This document shows, piece after piece, positions 9,444 to 10,895 of a DNA stretch of 24,000 nucleotides. Position 1 is the stretch's first letter. Each line of letters starts with the position of its first letter. The stretch is from Pectobacterium cacticida (lineage in GTDB: Bacteria > Pseudomonadota > Gammaproteobacteria > Enterobacterales > Enterobacteriaceae): contig NZ_CP133656.1 of the NCBI RefSeq assembly GCF_036885195.1, positions 1,356,101 to 1,380,100 on the forward strand, written 5' to 3'. The translations under genes were made by a program, and so were the position numbers. Below the pieces are notes generated by a model. That model was not told the DNA's origin, did not search any database, and saw nothing but the letters and a program-made list of their open reading frames with translations.

Positions 9444-10895
9444 ATGAATAGGTTGTTAAATTTTATTACACAGCGGGAAGGGGAGGCGATCAATCTGCAT
9501 CGAGAATTGGTCTGCCGCCCGGCCATTAACCCTGAACACGGTGGTGAAGGGGAAGAAGTCAAGGCGCGTTGGATAGAAGAATGGCTCTATGATAATGCGC
9601 TGTGCCGCGTGCAACGAATGGATGCTTTAGATGTGCAGGCAAATAATAAATTAAGGCCCAATCTGGTCGCGCATTTTCTTCCGGCGGGGGCGAAACATAC
9701 GCTATGGATCGTGACGCATCTGGATGTCGCCGCCCCTGGGCCACTGGCGCATTGGGTGAGCGACCCCTTTACATTACGTATTGATGGCGACCGATTATAT
9801 GGCCGGGGCGTCGAGGACAATAATCAGGGAATTGTGTCGGCGTTATTACTGCTGGATGCCATGAAACAACTGGACATTACGCCCCCGATGGGAATAGGGG
9901 TAATTTTTACCAGCGCCGGTATTACTGATTACACCAAAGGCATCGGCCATATTTTACGTAAGGTTCCGCAGTTGTTCCGGGCCGACGATCTGATTGTGGT
10001 GCCGGATTATGGCAATGAGAACGGCAGCATTATTGAGATTGGCGAAAAGCGTAACGCGTGGGTGCGTATCGATGTCAAAGGGCGGGAATACCATGCGGGT
10101 TTTAGCGAAGGGGCCAACTGTTTTGAAGCCGCTGCCCGCTTTATTGCCCGCCTAAAGCCTATCCGCCGCCGATACGCGTGTCCCGATCCGTTCTTTTTCC
10201 CGCCGACATCAACGATCACGCCGACGCATGCCGAAACGAACTGCACGGGGTTAAACCACGTTCCTGCCAATTTTGTGTTCTACCTCGACATTCGCCTGAT
10301 GCCGAACTGCGCGTTGGAACCCGTCATGGCCGATCTTCAACAGTTGGCGCGTCATATTGAAAAACAGGACGGAGTGCTATTTACCTTTTCCTATGTCGAG
10401 ATTACGCCAGACGCGCCGATTACGCCCCGTCACGCGCCGGTCATTCGCTTGCTTTCCGACGCCATAGAGCAGGAATTAGGGGTGATGCCCCGTCTGGTTG
10501 GCGTTGGCGGCGTGACCATGGTGTCGGTGATCCGTTCTCTGGGGTTGCCTGTGGCGGTGTGGGGGATCCAGCAATCCCGTAAAAACCAGATCAATGAGAG
10601 CATCAGCCTGAAAGCGCAACTGGCGCAAACGCGTATTTTTGCCCGGATGTTATATGCCTCACCGCAAAAGCGCGCCAAGCCGTCGCCTGATTTGCTCACC
10701 GCAGAGAAAACGCCGCATATCACGCCGGCGGAACAGGCTGTCGCCAAGCTGGTGGGGCTTGGTATGAATAATGAGGATATTGGCGAACAGCTCAGTGTGA
10801 GTGTCAACACGATTCGAACACACCTGAAAAACCTGTATCGTAAGACGGGCGCACGTAATCGGCGTGAGTTGCAACGGTTGTTTATTGTGCAATAA
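9444..10895 (+). CDS. Fusion regulator: M20-family (ArgE/DapE-like) peptidase-like domain plus a C-terminal LuxR/GerE-type HTH
   Basis: The N-terminal ~400 aa carry M20 motifs: GGEGE, RPNLVA, VTHLDV, YGRGVEDNNQG, VVPDYGNENGSIIEIGEK and VGVGG. The C-terminal 60 aa, TPAEQAVAKLVGLGMNNEDIGEQLSVSVNTIRTHLKNLYRKTGARNRRELQ, form a LuxR-type HTH. Start set at ATG 9444 (MNRLL); the track uses the TTG at 9420. Confidence 0.85.
   Translation: MNRLLNFITQREGEAINLHRELVCRPAINPEHGGEGEEVKARWIEEWLYDNALCRVQRMDALDVQANNKLRPNLVAHFLPAGAKHTLWIVTHLDVAAPGPLAHWVSDPFTLRIDGDRLYGRGVEDNNQGIVSALLLLDAMKQLDITPPMGIGVIFTSAGITDYTKGIGHILRKVPQLFRADDLIVVPDYGNENGSIIEIGEKRNAWVRIDVKGREYHAGFSEGANCFEAAARFIARLKPIRRRYACPDPFFFPPTSTITPTHAETNCTGLNHVPANFVFYLDIRLMPNCALEPVMADLQQLARHIEKQDGVLFTFSYVEITPDAPITPRHAPVIRLLSDAIEQELGVMPRLVGVGGVTMVSVIRSLGLPVAVWGIQQSRKNQINESISLKAQLAQTRIFARMLYASPQKRAKPSPDLLTAEKTPHITPAEQAVAKLVGLGMNNEDIGEQLSVSVNTIRTHLKNLYRKTGARNRRELQRLFIVQ

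Follow-up and report, generated by a model that had tools for sequence, protein, structure and literature searches.

A degenerate M20 metallopeptidase-like domain fused to a LuxR-type DNA-binding domain: a putative ligand-sensing regulator beside an omptin gene in Pectobacterium cacticida

Introduction

Why would a metallopeptidase fold be tethered to a DNA-binding domain, and could it still work as an enzyme there? This question is raised by a gene in a 24,000-nucleotide stretch of the Pectobacterium cacticida genome (contig NZ_CP133656.1, positions 1,356,101 to 1,380,100; hereafter the window). The gene encodes a fusion protein in which an M20 peptidase-like region is followed by a GerE/LuxR-type helix-turn-helix (HTH), and the best database match to this protein is 99% identical and also comes from P. 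cacticida. The initial annotation, made by eye, proposed that the active site is ablated and that the domain was recruited as the ligand-binding input of a LuxR-type output. The answer that we favour, and consider probable, is that the protein is a cytoplasmic one-component regulator. A dead M20 domain of the PRK13983 (DapE/ArgE-like) type would be its input module, giving ligand-driven control of a divergent omptin-family outer-membrane protease gene and of its own gene.

Results

The gene encodes a complete M20 fold followed by a GerE domain

Performing a Pfam scan, we find three matches in the fusion protein, all of them exceeding the gathering scores. Peptidase_M20 (PF01546) covers residues 90-403 (E 9e-15, 55.5 bits versus a cutoff of 24.6), M20_dimer (PF07687) covers residues 199-308 (E 4.4e-12, 46.4 bits versus 21), and GerE (PF00196) covers residues 427-478 (E 1.4e-10, 41.1 bits versus 23.5). 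This is the order of parts read by eye, a full M20 fold, a Pro/Lys-rich linker and an HTH at about 10725-10885, with the HTH limits now adjusted slightly (Table 1). The same scan showed neither an autoinducer-binding domain (PF03472) nor a receiver (REC, Response_reg) domain. The hydropathy profile exhibited no transmembrane-like segment except the buried core strands of the M20 fold. The start ATG is kept in the orthologues in a five-species alignment, and an alternative TTG lies at 9420. Full-length fusion orthologues were found in Pectobacterium and Brenneria by homologue search. An Rfam scan of 8900-11200 at E ≤ 1 gave no match.

We also modelled the protein with AlphaFold2. The model, which rests on 33 homologues, has a predicted local distance difference test (pLDDT) score of 88.6 and a predicted template-modelling (pTM) score of 0.78, with disorder only in the linker at residues 409-423. 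This linker is not alignable between genera. The predicted HTH has four helices (428-438, 443-450, 454-468 and 473-482). Searching the PDB with Foldseek, we find the best matches to be DapE, carnosinase CN2, ArgE and CPG2 (E about 1e-25), with a TM-score of up to 0.84 on the target for the closed DapE structure 5vo3. The model and its comparison with DapE, ArgE and CPG2 show an intact two-domain M20 fold. The M20-GerE fusion architecture is real.

The M20 part also matches the NCBIfam model NF010589/PRK13983, "M20 family metallo-hydrolase", with 362.9 bits versus a cutoff of 333 (residues 3-404; model positions 4-407 of 409). In place of the catalytic motifs and the stand-alone layout of about 410 amino acids (aa) of this family, the fusion protein has SAGI, KNQINE and an 80-aa tail of linker and HTH.

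Half of the active site appears to persist

Residue equivalences were taken from a HMMER alignment to H. influenzae DapE (3ic1/5vo3). The S-D-E134-E135 stretch of DapE aligns with S157-A158-G159-I160, which places Gly159 at the general-base Glu (E134) and Ile160 at the site-2 ligand Glu (E135). The residue that precedes the ligand Glu is the candidate general acid/base of both DapE and ArgE, and H349 lies in the second metal site (PMC4320195). Given the alignment and these roles, the catalytic base and both site-2-specific residues are gone, with an Asn in place of the His. Every GerE fusion exhibits S-[AGT]-[GSA]-[IL] at the DEE position, or a deletion there.

The residues of the first metal site present a different picture. 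The His of THLD and the bridging Asp are both kept and align with DapE H67 and D100. Both are invariant in 33- and 38-sequence alignments, and the His is present in 120/120 classified homologues. It is replaced by Arg or Tyr in L020, P0154, P0182, P0183, P0190 and P0226, relatives that stand alone and are highly degenerate. Asp188, nearly invariant in canonical and degenerate members alike, is the probable fourth ligand of this site. A search of the PDB with a 91-residue fragment for this ligand returned lysozyme noise and an ambiguous 3tx8 alignment, so we infer the role of Asp188 from the sequence alignment. The substrate-binding residues of DapE are H194, N245, R258 and T325, plus E134 and A136 (PMC11270798); the first four align with H217, N271, R284 and T358 of the fusion protein. 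Of the five metal ligands of an active M20 enzyme, H92 and D125 are thus kept and D188 is probably kept, and Ile160 and Asn381 replace those of site 2.

The by-eye reading fared well here. The retained H-x-D and bridging Asp, the Ala-Gly codons at 9915-9920 and the KNQINE Asn codon at 10584-10586 were all located exactly, and the HMMER alignment removes the concern that the Glu and His losses came from a shifted alignment. The word "ablated" holds for the general base and the site-2 Glu and His, and fails for the first metal site and the substrate contacts. By alignment, half of the active site is conserved, namely the first-metal-site and substrate-contact residues, with D188 as a probable member. 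The further proposal that the domain can neither bind a second metal nor catalyse hydrolysis is supported by these replacements, and such a domain would be predicted to be inactive.

Motif loss tracks with architecture and the dead domain is under selection

We classified 120 homologues by motif and architecture. All 79 stand-alone homologues of about 410 aa keep both [AS]DEE and AHQPNE. Both motifs are missing from all 41 homologues that have an N-terminal leader or a GerE tail, and these same 41 keep the site-1 and substrate-contact residues. The leaders are N-terminal hydrophobic stretches of about 50 aa, judged signal-peptide-like from hydropathy and by eye rather than by a dedicated predictor.

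An exhaustive profile search of 1.84 billion cluster representatives gave 331 family clusters at E ≤ 1e-30. Among the best 150 of the 331, only about 15 are full-length degenerate proteins, and no output domain other than GerE was seen on the degenerate proteins of this set. The initial annotation had allowed that M20-GerE might prove to be a common architecture; it is rare, with 14 clusters at 90% identity among 5.8 billion proteins. The carriers are at least three Pectobacterium species, at least three Brenneria species, a Corticimicrobacter metagenome-assembled genome, a genome deposited as Bartonella sp. LJL80, and metagenomes.

Comparing P. cacticida with the P. parmentieri or Brenneria orthologues, we obtained ratios of nonsynonymous to synonymous substitution rates (dN/dS) of 0.04-0.07 for the M20 part, 0.05-0.06 for GerE and about 0.9 for the linker; these values are qualitative because dS is near saturation. 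Selection maintains the dead M20 domain as strongly as the DNA-binding domain.

In a neighbour-joining tree, all degenerate proteins form one clade. Thirteen cytoplasmic fusion clusters form one subclade within it, sister to one leader-bearing group. Deep within a different leader-bearing group lies P0038, the sole protein that holds leader, M20, transmembrane segment and GerE in one chain. Since P0038 nests apart from the 13-cluster subclade, the tree implies that the GerE fusion arose at least twice.

Exported relatives pair with membrane LuxR-type regulators

We examined five loci in which a dead M20 gene with a leader stands alone; together they represent all three subclades. In 5/5 the M20 gene is directly followed, with a gap of 3-7 nt or an overlap, by a homologous gene for a polytopic membrane protein. 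An intact GerE HTH is present at the C-terminus of three of the five partners: L014 (972 aa, about 19 hydrophobic segments), L015 (467 aa) and L099 (549 aa). In L097 the partner appears to be split by an insertion sequence (IS) into a 400-aa membrane open reading frame (ORF) and a 479-aa ORF with transmembrane segments and GerE. In L098 the contig ends before any HTH, and the partner is 55% identical to the transmembrane-GerE protein of L097. As a control, we checked 77 canonical (DEE/His) loci from genome assemblies, and a GerE-like ORF lay within 6 kb in only one of them. The occurrence of split, membrane-tethered and soluble fused forms ties the dead M20 domain functionally to LuxR-type outputs.

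Some further features of these loci were noted. The IS of L097 (8405-11914, uncultured deltaproteobacterium) is of the DDE_Tnp_1/DUF4096 type, and the intact L098 homologue covers both halves of the partner. The pair of L099 is a second dead-M20/transmembrane-LuxR pair on the same contig, about 10 kb from that of L097. Each of these two M20 genes has autotransporter genes upstream, within about 6.3 kb in L097 and about 3.4 kb in L099. The M20-LuxR pairing has an exception in Desulfovibrio cuneatus (L020, 5707-7251), where a more degenerate member with the motifs RDD / PGAL / H / Y has lost even the site-1 His and no GerE gene is found within 6 kb.

The canonical PRK13983 genes (L019-L096), of an M20 subfamily that seems uncharacterised, have a small Cys-rich ORF (about 100 aa, CxxC) upstream on the same strand in 35/77 loci, and MnmG/GidA-like genes are often downstream. 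Clustering the neighbours of all 77, we recognised by eye only housekeeping-type genes (Cys-rich, MnmG/GidA-like, CorC-like, amidohydrolase), so the neighbourhood offers no clue to the ancestral substrate.

The fusion gene forms a two-gene module with an omptin gene

In the window the fusion gene is divergent from an omptin gene, its likely regulatory target. The same divergent pair is present in 5/5 Pectobacteriaceae loci (P. cacticida, P. parmentieri, Brenneria tiliae, B. roseae and Brenneria sp.). The omptins of the paired loci are 59-68% identical and the flanking genes vary. Among 12 Pectobacterium species, an omptin was reported only in P. parmentieri and P. wasabiae (PMC6963963), a distribution consistent with a sporadic two-gene module. 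In P. cacticida (4864-12487) the module is flanked by a GalF/GalU-like nucleotidyltransferase gene on one side and by gnd (6-phosphogluconate dehydrogenase) on the other, with rml and glycosyltransferase genes adjoining. In enterobacteria the interval between GalF and gnd typically holds O-antigen genes. The Brenneria tiliae module (L005, 1915-10817) occupies the same interval and that of P. parmentieri is found elsewhere; this change of location suggests horizontal mobility. Searching plasmids by tblastn returned only distant M20 enzymes (<30% identity), so the module is not evidently plasmid-borne.

At the more distant fusion loci, envelope and secreted functions recur beside the fusion gene, which is only a trend. 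An autotransporter gene (L008) or capsule-synthesis genes (L006) lie divergently upstream, and in Corticimicrobacter (L012, 6701-7870) an ETX/MTX2 toxin-like (aerolysin-like) gene lies downstream on the opposite strand. In this last locus the fusion gene comes after an AraC-family gene, and the region upstream of the toxin-like gene holds a single CTCACCCCCCCC copy.

Inverted repeats upstream of the fusion genes are candidate operators

The 425-bp intergenic region between the omptin and fusion genes contains all three exact TCACCYCC matches of the window, for which 0.78 would be expected window-wide. Two of them form the arms (9294-9301 and 9328-9335) of an inverted repeat, a candidate operator; in five Pectobacteriaceae the arms are conserved and the spacer is variable. 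The third is solitary and keeps its position in orthologous loci. The ACCCC core of the candidate half-site resembles the NarL heptamer TACYYMT. Just 3′ of the repeat lies a conserved block that is possibly the promoter of the regulator, judging from its invariant alignment columns; a sigma-70 consensus scan did not call this block as a promoter.

A looser pattern, TCACCYC-N8-32-GRGGTGA, has 11 matches in the 1.12 Mb of all fetched loci compared with a shuffle mean of 0.7, and 10 of the 11 sit 60-210 nt upstream of fusion genes. TCACCYC-N(14-28)-GRGGTGA is found upstream of the fusion gene in 7/9 distinct fusion loci. Among the ten upstream matches are that of the locus deposited as Bartonella sp. 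LJL80, ATCACCCCC-N12-GGGGGTGAT, and that of an AT-rich metagenome locus; the fusion proteins there are 48% and 56% identical, respectively, to that of P. cacticida. From centre to centre, the arms lie about 20 bp or 31-35 bp apart, which is close to two or three turns of the helix. As a speculation, an elongated M20 dimer with HTHs tethered at its distal ends could span such sites.

Other genes of the window

Downstream of the omptin gene lies a region of lower GC content (0.39-0.46) with two ORFs of the same orientation. PDB sequence searches with both (5931-7898) were negative. Both ORFs are absent from the orthologous loci, which have a DUF4751 gene after the omptin gene. The second ORF (5931-6920) bears on an idea of the initial annotation, namely that an ArgE/DapE-like pocket next to an NlpC/P60-superfamily amidase gene could sense fragments that contain amino acids or diaminopimelate. 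We rejected this link: the YaeF-like gene is two genes away from the fusion gene and absent from all other fusion loci, and the conserved neighbour is the omptin gene.

At positions 1-2000 the GC content is very low (0.28-0.32), and a group-1 glycosyltransferase gene and a 406-aa ORF without family match are found; apparently this part of a surface-polysaccharide cluster was gained by horizontal transfer. At 12946-16920 there is a yjbEFGH/gfc-like exopolysaccharide operon with YjbF/GfcB, GfcC and YjbH (Pfam), which starts with a 96-aa Ala/Gly/Thr-rich protein without Pfam match. Downstream, at 17343-21372, are a LicT/BglG-type antiterminator gene and two GGDEF diguanylate cyclase genes (one AdrA-like), with no evident link to the fusion gene.

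Table 1 Features of the fusion gene, its protein and its surroundings, in window coordinates
Feature	Position	Strand	Remarks
YaeF/NlpC-P60-like ORF (weak), 329 aa	5931-6920	-	permuted papain-like; E 4e-5, far under cutoff
ORF, 307 aa	6975-7898	-	no Pfam or PDB match
Omptin-family outer-membrane protease gene	8035-9018	-	divergent neighbour; Pfam Omptin E 1.8e-91
Solitary third copy of TCACCCCC	9135-9142	+	same intergenic region
Degenerate fourth copy, TCACCTT	9223-9229		same intergenic region
Inverted repeat TCACCTCC-N26-GGAGGTGA	9294-9335	.	candidate operator, about 110-150 nt upstream of ATG; RNA hairpin as alternative
Conserved block ATTTACAG...GATCGCGGTAAAT	9350-9380	+	invariant columns in five-species alignment
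Complete fusion gene, stop codon included	9444-10895	+	483 aa, M20-like/LuxR-HTH; ORF list
M20-like region, residues 1-405	9444-10658	+	catalytic-type domain in two pieces with lid inserted between; PF01546, NF010589, AlphaFold2/Foldseek
His92 codon (THLD)	9717-9719	+	DapE H67, metal site 1; retained
Asp125 codon (GVEDNN)	9816-9818	+	DapE bridging Asp D100; retained
Ala158-Gly159-Ile160 codons	9915-9923	+	replace Asp-Glu-Glu
Asp188 codon	10005-10007	+	probable fourth ligand of metal site 1 (role of DapE E163)
M20 dimerisation (lid) domain, residues 199-308	10038-10367	+	PF07687; modelled with high confidence
His217 codon	10092-10094	+	DapE lid residue H194, substrate contact; retained
Asn271 (10254-10256) and Arg284 (10293-10295) codons	10254-10295	+	DapE substrate-binding N245 and R258; retained
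Asn381 codon (KNQINE)	10584-10586	+	replaces site-2 His ligand, DapE H349
Pro/Lys/Ser-rich flexible linker, residues 406-426	10659-10721	+	pLDDT <50 at residues 409-423
GerE/LuxR-type HTH, residues 427-478	10722-10877	+	PF00196; PDB sequence matches VpsT, EsrB, NarL

Discussion

A proposed mechanism

In the one-component regulator that we consider probable, the M20 domain would still dimerise through its lid and hold one metal ion at most. It would bind, without hydrolysing it, a carboxylate- or amide-bearing small molecule, for example a dipeptide or an N-acyl amino acid. The ligand may drive the open-to-closed domain rotation known for DapE and so reposition the two C-terminally tethered LuxR-type HTHs. 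Their binding sites would be TCACCCC-type half-sites, which form an inverted repeat between the omptin and regulator genes, and from there the protein would control its own gene as well as the divergent omptin gene. As for its evolution, an exported dead M20 protein may have come first, as the periplasmic partner of polytopic-membrane LuxR-HTH regulators. In the lineage of the fusion gene the leader would have been lost and the M20 domain fused straight to the HTH. The motif-architecture correlation, the selection, the split pairs and the two or more fusions all support the initial idea that a dead M20 domain was recruited as the ligand-binding input of a LuxR output.

A broader proposal falls, in our judgement, just short of being probable. 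Dead M20 pseudopeptidases may be an unrecognised ligand-sensing module dedicated to LuxR-type factors and existing in three topologies: an exported protein with a polytopic-membrane LuxR regulator, a leader-M20-transmembrane-HTH chain, and a soluble cytoplasmic M20-HTH fusion. In the soft-rot and oak-pathogenic Pectobacteriaceae, the last form would sense a peptide- or N-acyl-amino-acid-like metabolite and, through TCACCCC inverted repeats, switch on a horizontally mobile omptin.

Several observations weigh against the regulator reading. The protein exceeds the NCBIfam equivalog cutoff of an active hydrolase family. A conserved Asp162 (TDY motif), three residues past the lost Glu, could in principle act as a base. 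D188 as a metal ligand is not fixed by the sequence, as alignments differ by ±2 residues (V186, D188, N190). The neighbour-joining tree has no bootstrap support values, the neighbours of fusion genes outside Pectobacteriaceae are heterogeneous, and the fusion loci L008 and L012 are without the strict repeat. As RNA, the sequence of the repeat folds into a stable hairpin, with z values of -3 to -5.9 at three of the four loci and of -1.8 at L006, and the hairpin is followed by a T-run in Pectobacteriaceae.

Because of the stable hairpin and the T-run, the repeat could be an RNA element instead of an operator. We favour the DNA operator on three grounds, namely that no gene of the same orientation lies upstream, that the arm sequence is conserved and that solitary copies occur; for the same reasons an intrinsic terminator, which would have no gene to terminate, was judged less likely. 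The arm sequence itself, beyond its pairing, is kept in distant fusion loci whose regulators are 48-56% identical.

Other explanations of the dead domain

It is unlikely that the dead M20 domain is a pure scaffold, which would only dimerise or bind a partner protein without small-molecule sensing and leave the regulator constitutive or expression-controlled. The dimerisation lid is intact, and the abstract of a 2024 review of pseudopeptidases describes mainly protein-protein roles. Dimerisation alone, however, needs no conservation of site 1 and four substrate-contact residues in proteins that are 37-87% identical and have a dN/dS of about 0.05. Moreover, the exported relatives sit where signals are sensed, paired with membrane LuxR-HTH proteins like periplasmic binding proteins.

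We give still less weight to a bifunctional enzyme-regulator, in which a mono-metal hydrolase with an alternative base (for example Asp162 or Glu124) would couple turnover to transcription like PutA or BirA. The retained site-1 ligands and all substrate-contact residues, the equivalog score and the conserved TDY Asp beside the lost motif are in its favour. Mono-zinc DapE/ArgE structures also exist; PDB 3isz and 4o23 are among the Foldseek matches, and a mono-zinc ArgE structure, 7RSF, has been described (PMC11270798). On the other side, every fusion has Gly, Ser or Ala where the general base would be, and the two site-2 ligands have given way to residues that ligate weakly or not at all (Ile/Leu; Asn/Val/Ile). 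The loss coincides without exception with the step from cytoplasmic enzyme to a protein that is exported or linked to an HTH. Changing E134 of DapE (E134A, E134D) reportedly abolishes or greatly reduces its activity, which also speaks against turnover here.

That a frameshift or assembly error joined broken M20 and LuxR genes, or that the M20 part is a pseudogene remnant, has a negligible chance, despite the missing catalytic residues and the rare architecture, and is refuted by the same full-length architecture across several genera and metagenomes, the strong purifying selection and the confident M20 model.

Comparison with known systems

The regulator that we favour has its best sequence and structure matches in DapE and ArgE (H. 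influenzae DapE, E. coli ArgE). It has in common with them and with PRK13983 the two-domain fold, the H-x-D His, the bridging Asp and, in DapE numbering, the residues H194 (H217), N245 (N271), R258 (R284) and T325 (T358). It differs from all of these enzymes by other residues at the general-base Glu and at the two ligands of site 2, and by the DNA-binding domain that it carries at its C-terminus. The uncharacterised PRK13983 proteins (NF010589) of Desulfovibrionales, Aminicenantes and others are stand-alone, of about 410 aa, with [AS]DEE and AHQPNE.

MocR/GabR/PdxR regulators combine an aminotransferase fold with a GntR HTH, and ROK repressors have a sugar-kinase fold. The logic is the same: a ligand-binding enzyme fold, with catalysis lost or reduced, is tethered to an HTH. 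The fusion protein differs from them by an M20 metallopeptidase fold instead of a pyridoxal phosphate-dependent or kinase fold, by a GerE/LuxR HTH, and by the reverse order with the HTH at the C-terminus. NarL/FixJ and LuxR quorum-sensing regulators have the same C-terminal four-helix GerE domain, with a REC or autoinducer-binding domain as input where the fusion protein has the M20 fold.

The split relatives resemble the periplasmic binding-protein co-sensors LuxP-LuxQ, TorT-TorS and ChvE-VirA. They pair a soluble exported protein of ligand-binding type with a membrane transducer encoded by the next gene. In their case the soluble partner is a dead metallopeptidase and not a periplasmic binding-protein fold, and the transducer is a membrane transcription factor and not a histidine kinase.

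The partners of the exported M20 proteins share a polytopic N-terminal membrane domain and a C-terminal GerE domain with DadR, HcdR and CadR of Eggerthella lenta, which are membrane-spanning (10-12 transmembrane segments) LuxR-type regulators (Nat Commun 2022, PMC9734109). The resemblance is one of layout. No M20-like accessory protein was seen in the passages of that paper that were consulted. The Eggerthella regulators come from Coriobacteriia and the M20 partner proteins from Desulfovibrionaceae-like Pseudomonadota. The fusion protein differs from the DadR type in having no transmembrane segment.

Novelty and significance

Searching the literature, also for omptins and LuxR regulators in Pectobacterium, we found no publication on an M20-GerE/LuxR regulator architecture or on the fusion protein. 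Family M20 goes unmentioned in the 2024 review of inactive metallopeptidase homologues. The search result and the 14 clusters agree with the initial view that M20 enzymes are not a standard sensor domain of LuxR-family regulators. As a bacterial signal sensor, the M20-GerE protein seems to be of a kind that is rare and has not been described. If our reading is true, it extends a known kind, the one-component regulator with an enzyme-derived sensor domain, in which the M20 fold is new. The metallopeptidase fold would then join the small list of enzyme folds turned into bacterial signal-sensor domains, and a bacterial M20 pseudoenzyme would have an assigned role.

For the family, about 40 database proteins named "M20 family metallo-hydrolase" or "succinyl-diaminopimelate desuccinylase" are almost certainly not hydrolases, and, judging from the split pairs, a periplasmic accessory protein may serve some of the polytopic-membrane LuxR regulators. 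For the plant pathogens that carry the module, the regulator, the TCACCYCC repeats and the omptin gene make up a testable candidate regulator-operator-target triplet, whose target belongs to a virulence-associated class of outer-membrane proteases.

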